A stretch of DNA of 64,000 nt from an uncultured delta proteobacterium (GCA_963818095.1 CAWFRA010000001.1:7558-71557); one strand, 5' to 3'; positions 5,785 to 38,784 are shown, counted from the stretch's first letter. Numbers and translations: made by a program. The notes: generated by a model from the letters alone, not told the origin.

Positions 5785-5879
5785 TATCTTTTAAAATCAT
5801 TCCTGCACGCGCCTTTACTCAACCTGCCGGGATATGGTAAGTAATGGCAGATTATCATTGACTTGGATGGGGGTGACGT

Positions 5880-6687
5880 ATGGCGCGCATTCTTAAGAAG
5901 ACGGCATTGGCCCTGCTGCTCGTGTTTTTTGTTGCAGTGCAGGTTTGCGGGGCGGCAGATAAGGCGGGCGTGGTGCTGATGCACGGCAAGGACGGGATAC
6001 CCTCGAACGTGAGCGCCATAGCCGACGCGCTGCGGAAGAACGGCTTTATCGTCGTTACCCCTGAGATGGCGTTCGGGAAGGACCGCCAGTTCGACAAGTC
6101 CTTGGAGGCCTGCGTCCCTGAGATAGACAGCGCGGTAGCCTATCTCAAAAAAGAAGGCGCTAATACGATCTTCATCGGCGGCCACAGTCTCGGGGCGAGT
6201 ATGGCCCTTTATTACGGGGCAAAGACGGCCGTCGCAGGCGTCCTCGCCATCGCGCCCGGCGGTAACACCGGCCACGCGGAGGGCCTCGTCAAGGACGAGA
6301 TCGAACGGGCGCGCAAGATGGCTGCGCAGGGGAAAGGCGACTCTGATAGCCCTTTTCGACGATTACAACCAGGGGATCAGGCACACCAGAAGAACGACCG
6401 CCAACATTTACCTGAGCTACCAGGACCCCGACGGCCCGGCGGTAATCCCCAGGGCCGCAGCGGCCCTTAAGCCGGGCACGCCGCTGCTCTGGGTGGTGGG
6501 AACGAAAGACCCCATGTACGAGAGGGGCGCGTCGTTCGCGTTCGAGAAGGCGCCGGCCGACAGCCGCAGCAAGTACATTGTGATCGAGGCGGCGGGCCAT
6601 ATGGATACCGTCTTCGACACAGGCGCAATAAGGCAGATCGTAGAGTGGATTAACGGGGTCCGGGCCGCAGGCGCGGCTCACCCCTGA
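5880..6687 (+). pseudogene. Alpha/beta hydrolase (dienelactone-hydrolase-like) with one frameshift near 6335-6345
   Basis: Signal peptide, then nucleophile elbow GGHSLGAS. After ..AAQGKG the sensible continuation (ATLIALFDDYNQGIRHTRRTTANIYLSYQDPDGPAV..WVVGTKDPMYERG..EAAGHMD) is in the +1 frame. Confidence 0.7.
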
Positions 6688-6985: not shown

Positions 6986-7972
6986 ATGAAGCACATCGAG
7001 ATCGCGGCGATCGGCGAGAGCGATTACGATTCCTGGGACAAATTCGTCTCAATCTCCGATAACGGCACCATCTTCCATAAGTCGTACTGGCTGAAGGCGT
7101 CAGGCAGGCCGTTCGACCTCTGGGGCGCGTACCGGTCGGGGAACCTCGTCGGCGGATACGTAGCCTCGCGCAAGAACATCCTGGGGATGCACATGGCCGG
7201 CGCCCCCTTCATGACCTTCTATTCAGGCTTCGTAGTCAAAAAGCCGGAAGGCAGCCTCGTCCATCAGATATCCTTCCAGCAGGAGGTGGCCTCCGCGTTT
7301 GCCAAGTTCCTGCCGGAGCAGTATTCCTGGGGCATATCGCTCTTCGCCCCCGGTGTTGACTGCATGCTCCCCTTCATCTGGGACGATTTCGTCGTGCGGC
7401 CGTGGTACACATACCGCCTCGATATCGGCGACACGGAGAAGGTCTGGCAGGGGCTGCACCAGCAGAGGCGGCAGGCCATAAGGGGCGCGAGGGCGGAGGG
7501 CATGCGCGTGCTGGCGGACGCCTCGACCGACAGGATCATGCTGATAATCGCCCAGACGTACGAGAGGCAGGGGACGCGGTTTCGGACCGAGGAGGCGCGG
7601 GCGTACCTCGACGAGCTGCAAAGGCGCAAGCAGTGCAGGATGTTCCTGTCGGTCGACAAGGACGGGAAAGAGCTGTCTGCGATCTGCGCAGTATGGGACG
7701 AGCACAGGATATACGCGCTGATGGGAGGATTCAGCGATGACAGCAACGGCGGGGCTTCGCCGCTGGCGTGGTGGGAGATGATAAAGTACGCCTCCGGTGA
7801 GCTGGGCCTGAAGGAGCTGGATACCCAGGGCACGCAGTTGCCCAGGCTGGAGGCGTTTCAAAGAAAGTACGGGTGCAGCCTGATTCCGCACTACGAGATA
7901 AGATGGGGCAAGGCAATCGGAACCCTGGTGGGACTGAATAAGTTTATCTCGCACCTGATGGTGCTGATATAA
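6986..7972 (+). CDS. FemAB-like / GNAT-fold (Acetyltransf_6-like) acyltransferase
   Basis: ATG at 6986 follows AAGGAGG (6971-6977). Size (~328 aa) and the N-terminal pattern MKHIEIAAIGESDYDSWDKFVSISDNGTIFHKSYWL resemble FemAB/BioF2-like families. Assigned from memory only. Confidence 0.5.
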   Translation: MKHIEIAAIGESDYDSWDKFVSISDNGTIFHKSYWLKASGRPFDLWGAYRSGNLVGGYVASRKNILGMHMAGAPFMTFYSGFVVKKPEGSLVHQISFQQEVASAFAKFLPEQYSWGISLFAPGVDCMLPFIWDDFVVRPWYTYRLDIGDTEKVWQGLHQQRRQAIRGARAEGMRVLADASTDRIMLIIAQTYERQGTRFRTEEARAYLDELQRRKQCRMFLSVDKDGKELSAICAVWDEHRIYALMGGFSDDSNGGASPLAWWEMIKYASGELGLKELDTQGTQLPRLEAFQRKYGCSLIPHYEIRWGKAIGTLVGLNKFISHLMVLI

Positions 7973-9463: not shown

Positions 9464-10946
9464 TTAAGCCCGAGAGGTCAACATCTCTTTGATTTTGGCG
9501 AGGAGTGCGGTTGGCGATACGGGTTTTTGGATGAATGACACGGGCGCGTCCTTGCCATCCTTCGCCGCCCGCCCGACTATTGCCTCTTTGGCCCTGCCTG
9601 TGATGAACAGGACGCGCACGCCCGGGTGCGCCTTTTTTAAGAATTCGTAAACCTCTTTCCCGTTCTTTTTCGGCATGTCCATATCGAGCAGGACCAGCTT
9701 CACGATCTCCCTGTTCTCTGTGAACGTGTCGATCGCCTCTTCGCCGTCGGAGGCTTCCAGCACGCCGTACCCTTCCTCGCGAAGGACCTCCGCAGTCGCG
9801 CCGCGCGCGGCCGTGTCGTCGTCCGCCAGTAAGAGTACGTCCTGGGAGCTTTCCGCAGCGGGCCCCGCTTCCAAAGTTTCCGCGCGCCTGCTCTCTGCCG
9901 CGAGCGGGAAATAGATGCCCAGGTCCGCACCCGAAAACGCGATGCGGCAACCGTGGCGCCTCAGTGTCGCGTAGGCCGCGGAAAGGCGCATGGCGGCACC
10001 GGCGCGGTCGGCATCCGTCGGACTTACACCTGCGCTTTCGCCTGTGTACGAGATCGAGAGCATCCCCCAGGCGCGCTCCACCGCTTGCCCGCCCTGCCCG
10101 TCCGGAGGCCCGGCGGCAATGCCCGTTTCTATCCGTAGCTGCGTTTTCCCCGGCGCTTCATGTCAAGTCCCCGGCAAGGCAGACTATCGCCTCCGTGAGC
10201 TGCGCTGCGTCCGCGGATACTACGAGGCGCTCGCCTGCGAGCTTGGCGCTCATCCGGCCGCCTCCCGCGAGCAGCGCCTTTACTGCGCCCATTGCTATAT
10301 CGTTCAGGGCGCAAGGCGCGAAAGAGGCCCCTTCAGCGCCCGCGTCCCCGAATGTCCGAATGAAGCCGGCCGCGCTCTCCGAGGCATTGACTATCAGGTC
10401 GGCGTATCGTTTGAGTTTGTCGTCGCCGGTACTCGATTTGAGGAGGCTGGCGTAACCCATGAGCGCCATGAGGCTGTTGCCGACGTCGTGCGAAAGCTTA
10501 CCCGCGAACGCGCCGAAGCCCTCGACGGACCTCTGTAGGCGCGCTTCCAGAACGGCCCTGTCGCTCTCCGCTTTTTTGCGGTCTGTGACGTCCCTGACGC
10601 ATACGAGATAGGCAGGCCCGTCGGATGGGACGGCTGTAATGGAGACTTCGATGCGCGACTGCGTGCCGTCCCCGGCCACGCCCGTTGTCTCGAACCGGGC
10701 GGCCCCGCTTTGAAGAACGGCCGTTATGTCCGCAAGCCCACGGGCGCCGGGTTCGCCGGCCGCGTCGGATGCGCCCGCGTTGCCCGATGCATCCGTCCGG
10801 GGAGCGGCCCACCCCAGCATTTCGAAAAATTTGGGGTTAGCGAACAACTCGCCTTTCAGAAGTGCAATGCCCTCGCTCAGAGTCTTCCATAGCGGTTTTC
10901 CCGCCTCCGTCCACCCCATACCTCCAGCCCCGTCCGGTGCGCACAC
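9464..10946 (-). pseudogene. Hybrid PAS histidine kinase/response-regulator receiver, split by a frameshift near 10081-10158
   Basis: ORF 10158-10946 carries PAS plus the H-box LSHDVGNSLMALMGYASLL and ends at an N-box-like QLTEAIVCLAGD. ORF 9464-10081, in another frame, continues with an ATPase-like tail and a full REC domain (VLLLADDD...LLDMDMPKKNG...KP). Confidence 0.65.
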
Positions 10947-11295
10947 GCCCGGCGACCATAAAGTGATGCCTACCCGGCGCAGTCACTTCACATCGGAAGT
11001 CCGCGTGCCCGGCTGTCCGGCTGGAGGTGCAGCGCACCATTTCCTTTGGTCCGCTTCTCACCCGAGGTTTGTTATCACTGATTGACTAGTTTAATAAGGT
11101 ATGACATTAGTGTCAAGAGAAATCGGCCCAACCCCGGAGGAACCTTTGTCAAATGGCCCCTTTCGGGTAAAACTTTCACCACCGCGCGATGTTGTCCCGT
11201 ACACCGCTGGATTCCGGCTTCCGCCGGAATGACGGAAGAAGACGCACACCCGGTCGTCAAATGGGAATGAATTCCACGGAACTCTAATTGAAAAT

Positions 11296-19314: not shown

Positions 19315-19439
19315 TCGCAACTAAAGCGGCAAGTATGAGGATGCAGATTTGGGTGAGCGCGAGCCCGAGGAACGGAGGCGTACTCTTTTGTACGTCGGAG
19401 TCCCGCAGGGCGAAGCGCGACCCCAAAGATGCGCCTCAT
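19315..19439 (+). repeat. MITE-like element, family B copy 1, with perfect 15-bp terminal inverted repeats
   Basis: gcggcaagtatgagg ... cctcatacttgccgc. The inner 112 bp (19316-19427) are identical to the reverse complement of 24467-24578. Confidence 0.8.
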
Positions 19440-19457
19440 ACTTGCCGCGCCTAAAAT

Positions 19458-23075: not shown

Positions 23076-23260
23076 TCTCGCGTCTCCTTTTCGACTATTA
23101 TCGCGGCTCGGCGCTTCGCCTACGCTCGCTTTATAATACTTCTGCTTACCAGCAGGGTTATTTATTTTCAGTCCTGATTATGGTACAAGTATACCGCAAA
23201 TTTTAGCGCGCACCAAACAACGTAGCGCACGCTGCCCAAACCCGAAAAAAAGGAGACGAG

Positions 23261-24449
23261 ATGCCGCAGCTTTCCGAAAGCAACGCCTTGATACAAAAAA
23301 TAGCCGAAAAGATGGCCAGGGAGAAAGTCGCGCCCAGGGCTAAAGCGATAGACGCAACCTGTGAATTCCCCTGGGACGTCGTAAACGCGTGCCGAGAGTA
23401 CGGCTTCCTCTACCTCATGCTGCCCGAGGCGTACGGAGGGCTGAACGCAAGCATTACGTCCCTGTGCGTCGTTATCGAGGAGCTCGCCAAGGCGTCCGGG
23501 TACGACGTCGCTCATCGTGCTCGCCCATAACGTCGGCCTTATGCCTATCCTGATCGCGGCGTCGGACGAGCAAAAGAAATTAATTTACGACAAGGTCGTC
23601 AATTCCAAAGAGCCTTACCTTGCCGCATTCGCCCTGACCGAGCCCGAGGCCGGCTCAGACCCCGCGCGCATGACGACCACCTTCGTCAAGGACGGCGACG
23701 GCTTCATCCTGAACGGCAGGAAGTCGATGATAACCAACGGGGCAAGCTGCAAGCTGCTGACGCTCTTCGCATCGAGCAACCCCGCCCTGAAGCACAAGGG
23801 CATCACTGCGTTTTTCATGGAGACGAGCCTCCCCGGCATCACGATCGGCAAGAACGAGGAGAAGATGGGGATGAACGGCTCCGACCTTACGGAGATCAGC
23901 TTCGACAACGTGCGGCTCACCCGCGACAACCTGCTCGGCGAAGGCAACGACGGATGGGGCGTTGCGATGTCCACGCTCAACCTGTCGCGGCCCGCGGTCG
24001 GCGCGCAGGCAGTCGGCATCGCCCAGGGCGCCCTCGACTACTCCGCGGAATACGCGTGGGGCAGGACACAGTTCGGCCAGAGGCTCGCAGAGCACGAAGG
24101 CATACAGGCGATGATAGGCGAGATGGCGACGGGGGTGGAGGCCGCCAGGCAGCTTGTTTACCACGCCGCGATGCTCCTCGACGAGCTGCCCGGCAGGGAC
24201 AGGGACACAATGGGCGCAATGGCCGCCGACAGGGCAAGCGCAATGGCGAAGGTCTATTCAGCCGACATGGCGATGAAGGTGACGACCGAGGCCGTGCAGA
24301 TACTGGGGAGCTACGGGTACACGAAAGATTATCCGGTCGAGCGCATGATGCGCGACGCGAAAGCGACCCAGATATATGAAGGCGCGAACCAGATTCAGAG
24401 AATGGTGATAGCGCGGTCGATCTTCCGCAGGTATAAGCTGAAGGGTTAA
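23261..24449 (+). CDS. Acyl-CoA dehydrogenase with one frameshift near 23505
   Basis: 23261-23530 (..VVIEELAKASG) and 23517-24449 (..SLIVLAHNVGLMPIL.., LTEPEAGSD, YEGANQIQRMVIAR) are collinear halves of one ACAD. Confidence 0.85.
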
Positions 24450-24455
24450 TTGTGC

Positions 24456-24592
24456 GCGGCGGCGTCTGAGGCGCATCTTTGGGGTCGCGCTTCGCCCTGC
24501 GGGACTCCGACGTACAAAAGAGTACGCCTCCGTTCCTCGGGCTCGCGCTCACCCAAATCTGCATCCTCATACTTGCCGCTCTTTAGTGGTGC
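24456..24592 (-). repeat. MITE-like element, family B copy 2, inverted relative to copy 1
   Basis: 24467-24578 is a 112-bp perfect reverse complement of 19316-19427. One terminal inverted repeat is degenerate here. Confidence 0.8.
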
Positions 24593-24901
24593 GGGTCATC
24601 TACCCGCTTTACTCGACTTTCGGGGCATCCATCGGAAATCTCCCGCCCACACCGGACCCTGTTCCGTTTTGTCGAGGCGCTGCAATCTCCCGTACCCTGG
24701 CACTGCGGCGCTGCCCCGTGCCTTCTTCATGTCCCTTGTCCCCTGGGTGAGGGTAGAATGAGGGGTTTATGCCTATGGGTTTGGCCTTACAAGTTCTTTT
24801 ACAAGATTTTCCTTACCCTGAAACAACACAGTATGGTAATGAATAACCATGTAGAGGCGAAGAAATAGCCGGAATTAAGGTCTGATCGCTGGGGTCTAGG
24901 T

Positions 24902-27028
24902 TTGAAGAACATGTCAATCGAGATCATTGACGAGACGTCACGCTACTTGACCGAAGTCAAAAGGCTTTGGAGAAAGAACAGCGAGATTCTGGGGTTCTTT
25001 CCCCAGGGTGCGTTTGAAGAATATGCCGCTAAGCGGACAATTATCGCGGCTGTTTCCCCAGAAAAGACTTTCATGGGCTATCTATTATTTCGGGTGGTAA
25101 GATACTCGGCCGGTTGGCCTGTAGCCGTTATCGTCCATCTATGCGTCGCTCGTGCAAGTCGAGGCAAGGGAATAGCCAGACAACTGGTGGAAAGCCTGCG
25201 CCGGTTAACGCATGATCAATTTCTGCGCATCGCGTTGAAATGCAGGCGCGATTTCGAGGTAAGTAAGATGTGGCCGACACTCGGCTTCACTTATGGTGGC
25301 GACGAGGCGGGTCGGGCAGGCCGTCCGCTTGGACGATGGTACATAGACTTGCGTGATTTGCCATTAATGGCGTTCTTTAGACAAAAGACATTGGCAAAAA
25401 GATTCTTGGCCGTTATTGACAGTAATGTGTTTTTTCGCTTGCAAGACGAAATAGGCCCAACAACACCGCAACATGAGAAAATCCTGAGTGAGGAAGCAAA
25501 AGCTTTGCTCGAAGACTGGCTCGGCGAAGACGTGGCTCTTGCGATCACCAAAGAGACGCTTAACGAAATAGAAAGAAATGACAATGCTTACGAACGCTGG
25601 CGTAGAGTATCATTTTCAAATGAGTTTCACAGCCTTACCTGTTCTTCCGATGCACAAGAAAGAGTTTGCGCGGTGGTTAAATCTTACCTTCCCGGTACGC
25701 TCAGTGATAACGACAAATCAGATATAAACCAAGTTAGTCAGGCTATCAGCGGCAAGGCCTACTGTTTTATTACGCAAGATACGCGACTGTTACGGATAAC
25801 AGAGCACGTGGAGAGGGAATTTGGCACGAAAATAATGACGCCCGGTGAGTTTGTAGGCCACGTGGACGAACTGATTCGCGAAATTCAATATAGGCCTGTC
25901 ATGTTCGCCGGTTCACGGCGCCTCGTCAAGTCCGCTATCCGTGGCCGACTGCCTGAAGATCTTTATTCTCAATTCCGTGATTCCGCCATTGGAGAAAAGA
26001 AAGGCGAATTCGAATCAAGCTTACGCGCTTTTATGGCCCGGCCGGCTCAATATGACTTGCAGTTGTGTACGTATCTGAATGGGAAAGCTTTAGTTCTGGT
26101 TGTCTACGATAGGAAGCGGCCCCTGGAACTCTCCATTCCAATGCTTCGTGTTACGTGGTCATCTCTTACCGAAACAGTTCTGCGCTACGTTCTCCGCCAA
26201 ATAGTAATGACATCATTTTTCGAAAAGCGTTCCACTATCAGGATAACTGATCGAAGCTGCGCTGAGAGTTTCAGAGAAGCGTTTGAGGAAGTTGGCTTCA
26301 GTCTAGTTGACAAGGAATATGTTAAGTGCAACCTGCCTTTCGTCGGTACAGGTGAAGAACTAAGCGCGCAAATGAACGGCCAAATGGATTTTCCTATTCT
26401 GCAAAGTCTTTCTGACGTTTTAAGTAGAGCGGTTGTGCTCCACGACCCTGTGGCTCTTATGGAGATCGAACACCGCCTGTGGCCGGCAAAGCTTCTCGAT
26501 AGTAATATTCCTAATTATATAGTCTCAATCAAACCAGGCTGGGCGGAGCATCTTTTTGACGAAGATTTAGCCGCTCAGACTCTTTTGGGAGCTAGAGAAA
26601 TTACTTCGCTTAAGAGCGAGAATGTGTACTATAGACGTTACAGATATCCTTCAGAAGTTCGAGGACCAGGCCGAATTCTATGGTACGTAACAAAAGATTA
26701 CAATCACCGTAACTCCATGCAATTAAGGGCTTGTTCCCTTCTGGAGGAAGTTGTAATTGGGAAGGCGAAAGCGCTTTTTAAAAGATTCCAGAGGCTTGGG
26801 GTTTACGAATGGACAAACGTGCTTCGGGATACCGATGGAAATCCGGACGCCTCTCTCATGGTTTTACGCTTTAGCAATACCGAGGTCTTTAGGCATCCTA
26901 TAAGCCTGGAGACTTTTGGACAGATCGTTCGAAGCGAGGATCAGAAATCGTTGTGTCTTCAGTCTCCTCAGCCGATTTCATCCAAGGCTTTTGCTATCTT
27001 ATATAAAACAGGAATGGGAATAAATTGA
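24902..27028 (+). CDS. 708-aa multidomain protein: GNAT acetyltransferase, PIN-like nuclease, second GNAT-like segment, C-terminal PUA/ASCH-like segment
   Basis: GNAT CoA pocket VARASRGKGIARQLVESL. PIN acidic core LAVIDSNVFF / ETLNEIE / DINQVSQ / CFITQDTRLL. C-terminal IVSIKPGWAEHLF...ILWYVTKD...MVLRFSNTEVF. The region is AT-richer than its flanks. Confidence 0.6.
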   Translation: MKNMSIEIIDETSRYLTEVKRLWRKNSEILGFFPQGAFEEYAAKRTIIAAVSPEKTFMGYLLFRVVRYSAGWPVAVIVHLCVARASRGKGIARQLVESLRRLTHDQFLRIALKCRRDFEVSKMWPTLGFTYGGDEAGRAGRPLGRWYIDLRDLPLMAFFRQKTLAKRFLAVIDSNVFFRLQDEIGPTTPQHEKILSEEAKALLEDWLGEDVALAITKETLNEIERNDNAYERWRRVSFSNEFHSLTCSSDAQERVCAVVKSYLPGTLSDNDKSDINQVSQAISGKAYCFITQDTRLLRITEHVEREFGTKIMTPGEFVGHVDELIREIQYRPVMFAGSRRLVKSAIRGRLPEDLYSQFRDSAIGEKKGEFESSLRAFMARPAQYDLQLCTYLNGKALVLVVYDRKRPLELSIPMLRVTWSSLTETVLRYVLRQIVMTSFFEKRSTIRITDRSCAESFREAFEEVGFSLVDKEYVKCNLPFVGTGEELSAQMNGQMDFPILQSLSDVLSRAVVLHDPVALMEIEHRLWPAKLLDSNIPNYIVSIKPGWAEHLFDEDLAAQTLLGAREITSLKSENVYYRRYRYPSEVRGPGRILWYVTKDYNHRNSMQLRACSLLEEVVIGKAKALFKRFQRLGVYEWTNVLRDTDGNPDASLMVLRFSNTEVFRHPISLETFGQIVRSEDQKSLCLQSPQPISSKAFAILYKTGMGIN

Positions 27029-27482
27029 AAAACCAACCGACAAAGAAGGTCATTCTATTGTCAGTCTTGCCGAAATTTGCTGAAAAAATCCTATCGGGGT
27101 TGAAGACAGTTGAATTAAGAAAAATACGCCCAAAAATCAGCGCGGGAGATCTAATTTTGCTTTACGTTACCTCTCCAGAAAAGTCTCTGCAGGCCATTCT
27201 CAGAATCAGCGACGTGAAATGCGATAGCCCGGATGCACTCTGGAAACACGCTCGCACGTGCGTCGGATTATCTTATACCGAATACAAGACCTACACTTTA
27301 ATGGAAGATCGATAGGTTATGCAATATATTTCGACAGGGTCGTGTCGCTATCTAATTCTTTATCCCTGCACATGTTGCGAAGCGTTTCGCCTGGTTTCCA
27401 ACCTCCGCGAATTCATCAGTATTTTTCTATTCGCGAAGTACATAATTTCATGCGTCGTCTTCGTGAACAGCAATCTCGTTAG
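27025..27482 (+). CDS. Small ASCH-domain protein, translationally coupled (TTGA overlap), with one frameshift near 27290
   Basis: KVILLSVLPKFAEKILSGLKTVELRKIRPKISAGDLILLY..LQAILRISDV, continued in the next frame as GRSIGYAIYFDRVVSLSNSLSLHMLRSVSPGFQPPRIHQYF. Confidence 0.6.
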
Positions 27483-27514
27483 AACATTGGCCCTGAAAGT
27501 GTTGACGTTCATCT

Positions 27515-27742
27515 TCACCTCCCCTGCTTTAGTCCCTTACAAAAATTCTCATGCACGCCGAGGGCAAGCAGCGAGAGGTTTTCCGCGTCGAATTTGTAGG
27601 CGAGGAGGTACTGCCGGTCGCCCGCGCGCCGCTTATAGACGCGAACGCCTGCGAGGTCGCTACGCTTTTCTTCGCCGCAGGTGGGGTCGCTCATGATGCG
27701 GCGGATGGCGCGGATTGACCTACCATTATCGTATAGCGTCAT
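27515..27742 (-). CDS. RelE/ParE-like toxin, short form
   Basis: The C-terminal pattern LAGVRVYKRRAGDRQYLLAYKFDAENLSLLALGVHENF resembles RelE/ParE (..YRiiY.i....i.vl.vgHR..). No convincing antitoxin lies upstream. Confidence 0.45.
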   Translation of the reverse strand: MTLYDNGRSIRAIRRIMSDPTCGEEKRSDLAGVRVYKRRAGDRQYLLAYKFDAENLSLLALGVHENFCKGLKQGR

Positions 27743-27944
27743 TCCTGCCGCTCGTGCACCTCACACTCTTGTGTAACTCATCACCCTTTTTCCAACGCCG
27801 AACCACCATTGTCCTTCGATACATACATAAATGTCTTGCAAATAATTCTATACCTGTGTTAGAAAGGAATTTGAGCGGTAATGTCCCGTAGAGGATTCTT
27901 TGGGTTAATAATGATTCTATCCTCCATATAACGGGAGAGACAAA

Positions 27945-28055
27945 TTGCTGCATTTTATTTTTGAGCTGTTCGCGAATTCAACTATTCTCGTCTTAATAGG
28001 GGTCCTCGTTCTAATAATAGTTGGCTTTATAGTGCGCGGGGAATGGAGGCTTTAG
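27945..28055 (+). CDS. Possible 36-aa single-TM hydrophobic peptide
   Basis: GGGAGAG (27933-27939), a 5-nt spacer, then TTG. Peptide (M)LHFIFELFANSTILVLIGVLVLIIVGFIVRGEWRL. It is too short for the supplied ORF track. Confidence 0.3.
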   Translation: MLHFIFELFANSTILVLIGVLVLIIVGFIVRGEWRL

Positions 28056-28120
28056 AGAATGTGTCGGGTTCAAAAGGGCCGTCAGTCAAGCCGCCGCACC
28101 TTCAAGGGTGTTTGAGCCCG

Positions 28121-29524
28121 TTACTCTCCGCAAACGCTTATCTTGGCGGCTGAGACGTCTGTCCGGGGGACTGAGACTTCGAGCGTTTCCTCCGGAGAGT
28201 TCTTTTTCGCTTTTCTCTTTATGACCAGTTGTACTACGGTGCCCGGCTTGCCGTAAAGCTTCAGCCGTGCCTCGCCCATGCTGCTCATCTTTGCCACTTC
28301 CGCCCCATCGATTGATACGATGTGGTCGCCCGATTTCAGCCCGGCCTTTTCCTCGCCAGGGCCGACCTGGGAAATGTACACGCTGCCGCGGCCGTCGGAA
28401 TTTACCCCCAGCAGGAGGTATCCGCTGGGGACCGGGCCCATCAGGACATTCTCCTCAACGACTGTCCCTGTCATGGAAACCCCTCCGCACGCCCACTTAG
28501 AGCTCCAGATCCCGGGGTCCACAACCTCCACCCGGAATTTGGGCCGGGTGATCTTAATGGTGATGCGTCCCCCGGCTTCATCTATCTGCGCTTCCACTTC
28601 CGCCATCGAAGTCGGGACGGTGCACGCGGTCGGGTAGGTTATTCCCGGGACTTCCCAGGAACCGACCCACTTGCCGCCTCGCTCGGTCAGAATGGAAGCA
28701 AGACAGTGCATTCCTCCCATATCGCTGCTATGCTTGCCGCCTATTACGTAGTCGATGGCGCCGTTCGAACCATAATGAACCCCCCGGAGGGTCAGCTTTC
28801 CACCATCCGCGTCAACCCTGTAAAGAGTGCCTGTCTGCGATATCCAGTATCCCGACATACTCTTGAAGCTCTGCGCCTGCTCGAGCCGGTACTCCAGCTT
28901 GACGATCTCATCTTTGATCCGCCGGGCGTCATCCGCGTTGGGGGCCAGGGCGACGTACTTCCCGTAGCTCTCGATAGCTTCCTTCAATTGCCCGATCTTC
29001 GCCTGGACGGAGCCCAGGTTGTACCAGGCCGCCGCCATGTTCGGCGCATAACCGGCGGCCTGTCCGAACTCCGACGCGGCCTTGGTCAGGTCCGCCTCGC
29101 TCCTGGCCATTTCAATGGCCGCCGCGCCGCGTATTATATGCTTCCGGGCCAGATCGTCCGCGGAGGCCCGAAGGACCGTGACAGTCTTCTCTTCCTCTTT
29201 TCTTTTTATCTTCAATTGCACCGGGGTACCCGCACGACCCCGGACCTTTTCAACCGCTTCATCCTTGCCCCCGATCCGCGCCGCATCCGTTCCGTCGATA
29301 GAGAGTATTTCGTCGCCGGTCTGCAAACCGGCCTGTTCCGCCGGGTCTCCTTTTTCGACCCAGCGTATCAACACCCTGCCCGAAGCCTCGCGCTCTATGT
29401 TGATGCCGACAACGCCGCTCGGCGAGACTTTTCCTGCGTCGCCCTGGCCGAAAACGGGGGCCGCAAGGCCCAGGCCAAGGATGAACGATGCGATTAACAG
29501 GATGCTGTAACAGGATCTCTTCAC
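28121..29524 (-). CDS. Secreted PDZ-TPR-(unknown central domain)-PDZ protein
   Basis: GTG at 29524 follows GGGAGA. Signal peptide KRSCYSILLIASFILGLGLAAPVFGQ. Two PDZ motifs (GDPAEQAGLQTGDEILSIDG; EEKAGLKSGDHIVSIDG). Its TPR block is paralogous to 31031-32116. Confidence 0.75.
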   Translation of the reverse strand: MKRSCYSILLIASFILGLGLAAPVFGQGDAGKVSPSGVVGINIEREASGRVLIRWVEKGDPAEQAGLQTGDEILSIDGTDAARIGGKDEAVEKVRGRAGTPVQLKIKRKEEEKTVTVLRASADDLARKHIIRGAAAIEMARSEADLTKAASEFGQAAGYAPNMAAAWYNLGSVQAKIGQLKEAIESYGKYVALAPNADDARRIKDEIVKLEYRLEQAQSFKSMSGYWISQTGTLYRVDADGGKLTLRGVHYGSNGAIDYVIGGKHSSDMGGMHCLASILTERGGKWVGSWEVPGITYPTACTVPTSMAEVEAQIDEAGGRITIKITRPKFRVEVVDPGIWSSKWACGGVSMTGTVVEENVLMGPVPSGYLLLGVNSDGRGSVYISQVGPGEEKAGLKSGDHIVSIDGAEVAKMSSMGEARLKLYGKPGTVVQLVIKRKAKKNSPEETLEVSVPRTDVSAAKISVCGE

Positions 29525-37581: not shown

Positions 37582-38647
37582 CTATCCTCCCGTTACAACG
37601 GCGGCAATCCACAGAATGAGGCCGCACGCCATCCCCGCGATCTCGAGCGGCAGGGCGACGCGCATCTCCTTTCGGACGCCGGAAAGCGACGTAAACGTGG
37701 ACGCGCCGGTGAAGTTCATCGCCAGAAATGCGGCCATTGCCGGAATGAAGACGAGCGCCGCGAGGACCGCAGCCGCGCTGTTATGGAGCGCGCCGCCGAC
37801 CAGCGCAACGCAAAGGCCGAAAAGAATACCCAGGCCGAGCCCCTTTGTTGAAAAGGCCCTGCCTGGGAGCCACGGCAGCAACACAGGCGTGAGTACGGCG
37901 CCCGCGAGGACCGCTGCGCCGAGCCAAACGCCGGCGAGCAAGGTCCAGCCTGCCGCCTTCGACGGCGAGAAGCCGGAAATGAAATAAGAGAGGACACACA
38001 GCGCCGCAGCCGCGACGATGCCCCACTTTACGGCAGGCACGACTTCTATTGGGACCAGGGCGAGCCTTTCGGCGAGCGGGAAATCTTTTGTCCGCATCCG
38101 GCCCGTCGCTTTGAGGCCGCCATCCAGAAAGGCGGGCAGGTCGTCTGCACGGACAGGTCCGTAGACCACTTTGAACCCGGAGCGCCGCCTCACCTCGTGG
38201 GCCGATACGCCCGGCGCGCCCAACTGGGGCACGATCAACCGCCTGTGGGACACGACCTCGGCAAGGCCGCTCGCCGCAATGCGCTCCACAAGCTCGTCCG
38301 TGCCGAATGTGCCCTTCCCCGCCGCGCACCACACATTGATGCCCTTCGTATCGAGCACGAGTATCCAGCCGTCTATGCCTGCGAGGGCCCGCCGCAGCAG
38401 GTCGAACGTCATCTTGTAGTTGGCCGTGACGAAAACGGGCGATTCCGGACGGGCGTTGCCTATGGCATACAGGCCGGGGTCAACGGTATAGTGCCATGCG
38501 GCCGATACCCCACCGGGACTTCCACGCCCCGAGGCGGTCCGACCGGGAGAACACGTGCGAAACCAGCGCCACCGGGCCGGCAGCGGTATCTATGGAGCCG
38601 GTCACGAAAACCTGCTCCATTCGCGGCGGACCCGCCTGGGTCCGCAT
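37582..38647 (-). CDS. hgcA: HgcA, the corrinoid mercury-methylation protein, with one apparent 1-nt insertion near 38494
   Basis: Cap-helix signature GINVWCAAGKGTFGT, upstream VDPGLYAIGNARPESPVFVTANYKMTFD, and a C-terminal multi-TM domain. Removing one base from atgGcac restores ..FVTGSIDTAAGPVALVSHVFSRSDRLGAWKSRWGIGRMHYTVDPGLY from the ATG at 38647. Confidence 0.8.
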
Positions 38648-38784
38648 CTTCGGCCCTCAACAGGATTGCAGCGGCAGGCGTTTCTATCTCACAATGGGTT
38701 TCCATATTTTCATAATATGCCTTTTCGATGTCCATGTCAAGACTACATATCAATCAGTTTCAATGTAGCATCAAAATTATTTGG

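Follow-up and report, generated by a model that had tools for sequence, protein, structure and literature searches.

What kind of system is encoded by a low-GC island that holds one large gene for a GNAT-PIN-GNAT-ASCH-like protein of 708 amino acids (aa) and, overlapping its stop codon, the gene of a small ASCH partner? The island lies in a stretch of 64,000 nucleotides (nt) of DNA from an uncultured delta proteobacterium (GCA_963818095.1 CAWFRA010000001.1:7558-71557), which as a whole is referred to as the window. In an earlier note, written from the sequence alone, the pair had been taken for an RNA acetylation/deacetylation plus RNase module that acts as a toxin-antitoxin (TA) or anti-phage system and whose architecture was not recognised as any named system. 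According to our sequence and profile comparisons, the module is a four-domain variant of the predicted PIN-GNAT-PUA + ASCH class, to which the candidate system PDC-M11 belongs, and we interpret it, with a probability of about 60%, as a mobile, self-contained two-gene conflict module that is a candidate anti-phage or abortive-infection system. The coordinates of all features are collected in Table 1.

The large protein is a chain of a canonical GNAT domain (GNAT1), a PIN domain whose acidic site is complete, a GNAT fold lacking motif A (GNAT2) and a divergent ASCH/PUA-like domain, and the four domain calls of the earlier note, as well as its open reading frame (ORF) of 708 aa, were borne out by the searches described below. 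The public record of the protein (P0001) begins at the ATG at 24911 and gives a length of 705 aa. When compared with 106 homologs, the protein retains 55 of the 56 positions that are conserved to at least 93%. The full-length AlphaFold2 model reached a mean predicted local distance difference test score (pLDDT) of 79.9 and a predicted template modelling score (pTM) of 0.57, and its low-confidence linkers, 152-166 and 331-339, mark domain boundaries.

GNAT1 carries the acetyl-CoA motif A as R87-G-K-G90-I-A92 and motif B as D117..A120..W124..G128-F129. About 95% of 107 homologs retain motif A (R/Q-x-x-G-x-A), and GNAT1 is the most conserved domain of the protein, contributing 22 of the 56 positions mentioned above; judged by these motifs, it looks able to bind acetyl-CoA. 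Its fold is nearest to Naa30, Naa10 and Ard1 with a template modelling (TM) score of about 0.8 (Foldseek), and the profile search against the PDB led to aminoglycoside, N-alpha and RimI-type acetyltransferases. TacT and AtaT, the GNAT toxins with which the domain had originally been compared, appeared neither in this profile search nor among the top 50 full-length Foldseek matches, and the analogy is not supported. The nearest solved relatives are N-alpha protein and aminoglycoside acetyltransferases, and TmcA does not belong to them either. For the PIN domain, the match of the window protein alone to PF13470 was weak (E 2e-3) and no credible match was obtained with PDB sequence profiles. Of 41 family members, however, 38 match PF13470 (best E 6e-15) and 26 match PF01850, and it is by these Pfam matches that the PIN call was settled; the acidic residues of its core are invariant or nearly so among the homologs.

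The assignment of GNAT2 is a fold-based one. Its AlphaFold2 model, built from 13 sequences (pLDDT 76.9, pTM 0.77), matches dozens of GNAT structures; in Pfam no match was found for this domain, and a comparison of aa 333-520 with GNAT1 by hhalign was not significant (probability 2%). Because the R/Q-x-x-G-x-G/A motif is absent from aa 412-430 in 107 sequences and only E365, R416 and F466 are highly conserved, the modelled domain is probably a degenerate or scaffold domain. The C-terminal domain was detected neither by Pfam (0 of 41 members) nor by PDB sequence profiles. Its fold matches ZmASCH of Zymomonas mobilis (PDB 5GUQ; Foldseek E 1e-7, TM 0.7), and its profile aligns with that of the partner family over 130 columns (hhalign probability 96%, E 5e-9), from which it follows that the domain is a divergent paralog of the partner protein. 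It contains 21 highly conserved positions, including Y576, Y577, R591, W594 and Y595, and an insert of ~17 aa stands in place of the G-x-K...E part of the ASCH motif.

This order of domains is not without precedent. Matelska 2017 (PMC5499597) described the families PIN_15 and PIN_17 computationally as a PIN-GNAT-PUA core with an adjacent ASCH gene, and Bell, Wolf and Koonin 2020 (PMC7641849) reported operons with (PIN)-GNAT-EVE + ASCH near type I restriction-modification genes as putative systems for TA or defence, none of these modules being characterised. A TA function was predicted for the class in both papers, and both credit Iyer et al. 2013, as cited there, with having first noted it and with having proposed nucleic-acid acetylation. 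The architecture can consequently no longer be called unrecognised, since its core together with the adjacent ASCH gene is contained in these two studies and is related to PDC-M11 of PADLOC. In the window protein, the PIN domain likewise stands N-terminal to a GNAT fold that lacks motif A and is followed by a PUA-like domain, and the second PUA/ASCH domain of the class is encoded in the adjacent gene, here in frameshifted form. Furthermore, the class and the four-domain family share a sporadic distribution and the proximity to restriction-modification and other defence genes. A Rhizobium etli protein of the PIN-GNAT-EVE type, 512 aa long, aligns colinearly with the core of the window protein (hhalign probability 95.9%, E 5.7e-9, 438 columns), its GNAT region being matched by GNAT2, and this R. 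etli protein is flanked by genes for a helix-turn-helix (HTH)-ASCH protein and for an AAA ATPase. The partner has homologs in the HTH-ASCH/ZmASCH proteins that such classic operons encode. The C-terminal domain of the window protein is PUA-like/ASCH by its fold, and a specific EVE class was not assigned to it by Pfam in any of the 41 members.

The same relation emerged from PADLOC-DB v2, whose candidate system PDC-M11 (PDC-M11A + PDC-M11B) has the same two-gene layout. The reconstructed partner matches PDC-M11B with E 1e-24 over model positions 1-138 of 142, adjacent to the large gene and on the same strand, the gene being interrupted as encoded. The large protein matches PDC-M11A with E 6.7e-9 over only about 30% of the model; the match lies in the PIN part (4-149 of 486), with a weak one in a C-terminal part. 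All of 46 diverse family members match PDC-M11A (best 5.6e-21), and none of them matches another PADLOC family. The N-terminal GNAT of the window protein lies outside the PDC-M11A models, which have lengths of 376-501 positions. For PDC-M11 itself, no published phenotype was found, its one mention in the literature being a software call. What is new here relative to the class is the extra N-terminal GNAT with an intact motif A, which is mentioned in neither PMC5499597 nor PMC7641849, the paralogy between the C-terminal domain and the partner, and a partner that lies downstream and has no HTH; in addition, no AAA_17 ATPase gene is associated with the pair.

The partner family is also found together with GNAT-EVE in a prophage region of Rahnella and, in Rhizobium, together with an EVE protein beside SIR2. 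On Rahnella aquatilis pKM05 (locus L124, 2956-4372), a 353-aa 'N-acetyltransferase' gene and an overlapping 125-aa ASCH gene are situated among prophage lysis and antitermination genes, an arrangement that fits the phage-borne GNAT-EVE + ASCH form of Bell et al. (PMC7641849). The hhalign comparison of GNAT2 + ASCH of the window protein with the Rahnella prophage GNAT-EVE protein was not significant (small profile), which leaves homology to the phage forms without PIN unproven.

In order to judge the size of the family, several searches have to be read together. The word-indexed homolog search saturated at 14 proteins, even with a profile, which is a limit of the method. Scans by peptide patterns yielded 193 loci in metagenomes and, as a lower bound, 39 loci among 185,579 GTDB species representatives. 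An exhaustive profile search with the core without GNAT1 gave 2,106 representatives at E <= 1e-3 and 1,125 clusters at E <= 1e-30 (50% identity clusters). As nearly all of the best 150 matches are about 700 aa long, with the core beginning near residue 160, the four-domain fusion represents a large family. Its distribution is patchy over at least 10 phyla, with hosts among Desulfobacterales, Scalindua, Nitrospira defluvii, Gallionella, Sulfurifustis, Nostoc, Anabaena, Calothrix, Verrucomicrobiota, Planctomycetota, Kiritimatiellia, Bacteroidota, Eubacteriales and Solirubrobacteraceae. In RefSeq, members are annotated only as 'GNAT family N-acetyltransferase' and 'hypothetical protein'.

Evidently, the two genes belong together. 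Among the 106 loci with room downstream of the large gene, 105 carry a partner homolog directly downstream, encoded on the large gene's strand and in a single frame, with junctions mostly of -4, -1 or +1 to +5 nt; the coupling with a small ASCH gene, which the earlier note had proposed to look for among homologs, is thus nearly universal. In the sole exception (locus L106, 8006-8443), the large protein is followed by another kind of ASCH gene, with the motif GAKVWEVR, which looks like a non-orthologous replacement of the usual partner. Across phyla the two genes are inseparable, in surroundings that lack conservation: any other neighbour family is limited to 9 or fewer of 116 loci, for which reason a conserved third gene, such as the AAA_17 ATPase of related operons, was rejected.

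The partner protein, as reconstructed from the window, comprises 152 aa, in line with the intact homologs, which have a median length of 150 aa and consist of the ASCH domain only. The family conserves S13, P16, G25, K27, E30-L31-R32, Y47, P51, W73, Y90, P111, L114, F124, P127-Q128 and Y132, and its octapeptide GxKxxELR (consensus G.KtvELRr) places it in the GxKxxExR ('GKER') group of ASCH proteins. The closest solved homolog is again ZmASCH, which an intact partner homolog matches over its whole length (5GUQ, E 2e-15). ZmASCH (PDB 5GUQ/5GUS) binds nucleic acid and cleaves single-stranded RNA in a Mg-dependent manner, with Tyr47, Lys53 and Ser128 located in the cleft (PMC5615036). Tyr47, the GxKxxExR motif and the FQPPQ(S) segment are common to ZmASCH and the partner family, equivalents of Lys53 and Ser128 are present in at least 60% of the members, and the fold is that of the C-terminal domain of the large protein as well. 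The 5GUQ chain was named 'Helix-turn-helix domain-containing protein' by its depositors, whereas the partner is a stand-alone protein of about 150 aa, and two positions conserved in the family differ in the frameshifted part of the window's partner (P111S, Q128R).

These properties bear directly on the reading of the module as a writer and an eraser, in which GNAT1 would acetylate RNA (e.g. to N4-acetylcytidine, ac4C) or aminoacyl-tRNA, the ASCH protein would deacetylate it like YqfB, and this switch would be coupled to the PIN RNase. Some ASCH proteins are indeed ac4C amidohydrolases of the YqfB type (PMC6972931), and YqfB has the ASCH fold in common with the partner. However, YqfB is a single domain of 103 aa with a GK[T/S]R octapeptide and without nucleic-acid binding, and neither this octapeptide nor the length of ~103 aa is found in the partner, which is of the GKER type, ~150 aa long and ZmASCH-like. 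ZmASCH, the closest characterised homolog, showed no activity on the ac4C nucleoside within 24 h, and in vivo it left tRNA ac4C without a decrease (bioRxiv 10.64898/2026.02.27.708502); yet all 19 ASCH proteins tested in the same study removed ac4C34 from tRNA in vitro. The intact acetyl-CoA motif of GNAT1, together with its rank as the most conserved domain, and the nucleic-acid acetylation idea of Iyer et al. 2013, as cited in PMC5499597 and PMC7641849, would suit a writer. On the other hand, GNAT1 resembles N-alpha protein and aminoglycoside acetyltransferases and not TacT/AtaT, the helicase/ATPase and tRNA-binding domains of TmcA/NAT10 were not found by Pfam, NCBIfam or fold searches, and the C-terminal ASCH-like domain has the G-x-K...E part of its motif replaced. 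In view of the inactivity of ZmASCH on the ac4C nucleoside, the writer/eraser idea stays speculative, and we regard it as distinctly improbable; the YqfB-type deacetylase role of the earlier note is left unsupported, apart from the in vitro removal of tRNA ac4C.

The partner gene of the window is disrupted. The stop codon of the large gene (TGA) shares the TTGA at 27025-27028 with the TTG start of the partner, as had been noticed before, and an AGGA is located 12 nt upstream; the partner is translationally coupled to the large gene. What had been described as one separate ASCH ORF, however, is 458 nt long, which is no multiple of three, and consists of two ORFs: the first frame (27025-27315) ends after 96 codons with a stop at 27313-27315, and the remainder of the domain lies in another frame (27297-27482). 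In a tblastn comparison with the closest intact partner (locus L120, 71% identity upstream), the change of frame falls precisely at EYKTY|FNG, and the window reads TACACTTT at this site. Programmed frameshifting was rejected because the site is a simple duplication of AC and each of the other 105 loci has the partner in one continuous frame across the insertion point. On the downstream side of the insertion, the window's partner deviates at two of six highly conserved positions (P111S, Q128R), upstream at none of eleven; the difference is not significant (Fisher p about 0.11), and the two deviations are suggestive of decay of the partner. With a frameshifted partner beside a large gene that looks intact, the window copy is either disabled or mis-assembled and possibly inactive, and the annotation of the partner gene in the window needs a correction or a pseudogene flag. 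An assembly indel error may be the cause, since the neighbouring acyl-CoA dehydrogenase gene is frameshifted too and further candidates for split genes occur in the window.

The acyl-CoA dehydrogenase gene (23207-24449, plus strand) shows PF02771 in 23207-23527 and PF02770 and PF00441 in 23445-24446 in another frame, with the shift near 23497-23505 (TCCGGGTAC). Three more candidates were noted. At 9467-10982 on the minus strand, a HisKA ORF (10161-10982) is followed by a Response_reg ORF (9467-10162) in another frame, where the junction lacks a start codon and a HATPase_c domain was not detected; at 5877-6684 on the plus strand, the N-terminal half of an alpha/beta hydrolase (5877-6467) is overlapped by an ORF without a match (6139-6684); and a CdhD-like ORF at 37585-38656 on the minus strand covers only model positions 267-378 of 387. 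These three suggest assembly indel errors or many pseudogenes.

The broken partner also bears on the classical explanation as a type II TA system, in which a PIN and/or GNAT toxin would be constitutively neutralised by the small ASCH protein as antitoxin, leading to addiction to mobile DNA or to its stabilisation. Both PIN and GNAT domains are frequent in toxins, the coupling of the two genes is tight, and this function was predicted for the class in PMC5499597 and PMC7641849. The toxins TacT, AtaT, ItaT, KacT and VapC belong to the same two superfamilies, are encoded in small mobile operons as well and offer a plausible translation-targeting outcome for comparison. Unlike in these toxins, both toxin-type domains are fused here in one 700-aa protein with reader domains, and neither an RHH/DUF1778 (ribbon-helix-helix) nor a VapB-type antitoxin is present; a toxin of 700 aa with four domains is atypical, and GNAT1 has no specific similarity to TacT/AtaT. 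Type II antitoxins are small proteins with a DNA-binding domain such as RHH, HTH or AbrB that are usually encoded upstream, whereas the partner is encoded downstream and consists of ASCH only, no HTH or other DNA-binding domain having been found in it; alpha-proteobacterial relatives do carry an HTH-fused ASCH, as many antitoxins do. Moreover, the partner is paralogous to a domain of the supposed toxin, to which shared recognition fits better than inhibition. For an essential antidote, a frameshift next to a large gene that keeps 55 of 56 conserved residues is unexpected, an objection that is softened by the possible assembly error indicated by the acyl-CoA dehydrogenase gene. TA genes occur nearby, with the ParE-like gene in the window and HicB, AbiEii and TumE near other loci. 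Taken together, we consider a classical type II TA system rather unlikely.

The surroundings of the module were analysed as well. In the window, the GC content falls to 0.42-0.51 from 24750 to 28250 compared with 0.57-0.66 on both sides (500-nt windows), and the large gene has a GC content of 0.471 with 0.474 at third codon positions (GC3), as opposed to GC3 values of 0.84, 0.68 and 0.80 in three flanking genes. The low-GC island described in the earlier note is therefore real; it is compositionally foreign, and this copy of the module was horizontally acquired. At the other loci, defence-type neighbours comprise McrBC, ResIII, restriction-modification systems of types I, IIG and III, N6_Mtase, Eco57I-like, MmeI, BrxL, AbiEii, Fic/SoFic, RhuM, mad2, IetA, PDC-S05 and PDC-S23, and transposases are found in addition.

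Two plasmid copies deserve a description of their own. On the mobilizable plasmid pCAL6303.01 of Calothrix sp. PCC 6303 (locus L122, 3835-11539), a compact defence island shows the order cytosine methyltransferase, Eco29kI endonuclease, GNAT-PIN-GNAT-ASCH gene, ASCH gene, AAA ATPase and McrC-like protein; the pair, annotated as 'GNAT family N-acetyltransferase' and 'hypothetical protein', is thus placed between an Eco29kI restriction-modification system and an McrBC-like pair. A Caulobacter rhizosphaerae plasmid (NZ_CP048816.1; locus L123, 4959-7548) contains a divergent four-part copy of 713 aa with 24% identity over GNAT1 + PIN. There, an ASCH ORF of 152 aa (7090-7548), which is absent from the PLSDB gene table, overlaps the stop of the large gene, and a nucleoside triphosphate (NTP) pyrophosphohydrolase gene lies directly upstream.

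By the same contexts a housekeeping role can be judged, that is, an RNA-processing or -modification enzyme such as a tRNA/rRNA acetyltransferase/nuclease with PUA-like RNA-binding domains. In its favour, enzymes that modify RNA typically contain PUA/ASCH domains, housekeeping genes are found among the neighbours, one of them (beside locus L001) encoding a PUA-domain RNA methyltransferase, and the very conserved N-terminal motif LGFFPxGAFEE of GNAT1 suggests an invariant cellular substrate. Such a role agrees poorly with an occurrence in 39 of the 185,579 species representatives (as said, a lower bound) scattered over many phyla, with the lack of conserved synteny, with copies on plasmids and inside restriction/defence clusters and with the strongly foreign GC3 in the window, so that we hold it to be very improbable.

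The reading as a mobile conflict module of the toxin/anti-phage type fits because the pair is strictly conserved, its contexts are variable and rich in defence genes, copies reside on plasmids, and the family matches PDC-M11. To this extent the functional proposal of the earlier note stands, and its deacetylase part is not supported. Several points weigh against the reading. The association with defence genes, which are frequent in the neighbourhoods, is qualitative only, and housekeeping, metabolic and signalling genes are common neighbours too. No copy of the module was found in the phage genome collection, and the viral structure library returned generic GNAT and ASCH matches only; direct evidence for a phage trigger was not found, nor was an experimental study or phenotype for the class in the literature. 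Finally, the structure models were built from only 13-14 sequences, and the inter-domain arrangement is of low confidence in view of the pTM of 0.57 of the full-length model.

If the module is such a conflict system, the fused and the free ASCH domains together may form a recognition unit for nucleic acid, most likely RNA, or for a modified RNA/DNA base. Binding by ASCH would position or activate the PIN domain, leading to RNA cleavage, and GNAT1 would acetylate an amine, carried either by the same target or by an associated substrate (e.g. aminoacyl-tRNA, a protein N-terminus or a base). Cleavage by PIN and acetylation by GNAT1 could then result in translation shutdown or in the marking of invader nucleic acid, with GNAT2 acting as a structural or pseudo-dimer scaffold. 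A more specific version would be an acetylation-based immunity, in which the ASCH readers sense (modified) nucleic acid, GNAT1 acetylates aminoacyl-tRNA or a nucleobase, ASCH reads or erases this mark, and PIN destroys the marked or unmarked RNA. This version appears quite unlikely to us; if true, it would constitute a writer-reader/eraser-nuclease circuit without a characterised precedent in prokaryotic defence, and a fresh active GNAT beside a motif-less internal one would make acetyl transfer central to the mechanism.

Table 1. Features of the locus in the window, with nucleotide positions counted from the first letter of the stretch.
Feature	Position	Strand	Remarks
Large gene, GNAT1-PIN-GNAT2-ASCH-like, 708 aa	24902-27028	+	Intact ORF, TTG start
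GNAT1 (aa 1-151), canonical acetyltransferase	24902-25354	+	PF13673 and PF00583 above gathering cut-offs
PIN (aa 167-330), VapC-like	25400-25891	+	Acidic D173, E218/E222, D274, D293
GNAT2 (aa 340-495), GNAT fold without motif A	25919-26386	+	Foldseek E 2e-5 to 4e-4, TM about 0.6
C-terminal ASCH-like (PUA-like) domain (aa 526-708)	26477-27025	+	Fold and profile evidence
Small ASCH partner gene (PDC-M11B-like, ZmASCH-like), disrupted	27025-27482	+	Two ORFs in different frames
2-bp insertion AC (TAC-AC-TTT)	27295-27296	+	Cause of the partner frameshift
Low-GC island	about 24750-28120		Atypical codon usage; holds the module and the ParE-like remnant (possibly decayed)
134-nt repeat	24454-24587		Left island edge; second copy, inverted, at 19320-19450; 95.5% identity over 134 nt (blastn)
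ParE-like toxin gene, 75 aa	27515-27742	-	PF15781 E 8e-18, model positions 24-87 of 87 only
ORF upstream of the ParE-like gene, 75 aa	27726-27953	-	No family match

As to the borders of the island, the repeat at its left edge, which had been called MITE-like (miniature inverted-repeat transposable element), exists and has its inverted second copy, its nature as a MITE not being established. At the island borders, a tRNA gene, direct repeats and inverted repeats were looked for and not found, and promoter and terminator matches were at background level only. The 14-nt sequence GTTTGAAGAA(C/T)ATG is present as a direct repeat, one copy lying where the large gene starts (24900-24913) and the other 112 nt downstream of it (25012-25025); this is probably a chance match. 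The neighbouring ParE-like gene, correctly seen in the earlier note, lacks the first ~23 positions of the PF15781 model and is possibly truncated at its N-terminus; it is a neighbour of the module and not a component. No recognisable antitoxin was found for it, the ORF upstream having no match in Pfam, NCBIfam or PADLOC. The GC content of the ParE-like region (27515-27953, minus strand) is 0.59 compared with 0.45 in the surrounding AT-rich DNA, and the region is possibly a decayed TA remnant.

In the class to which the module belongs, PIN and GNAT, both classic toxin enzymes, are combined with two PUA-like reader domains; three comparative-genomics studies as well as PADLOC have flagged this class, and its four-domain subfamily is large and phylogenetically broad. 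The domain boundaries, the candidate catalytic residues (R87 and G90 of GNAT1; D173, E218/E222, D274 and D293 of PIN; and, for ASCH, Y595 of the large protein and Y47 of the partner) and the universal paralogous ASCH partner make the system directly testable, and the size and breadth of the family as well as its unusual combination of enzymes make it a good experimental target. If it is a defence system, it would show how acetyl transfer and the reading of bases or nucleic acids are used in immunity.

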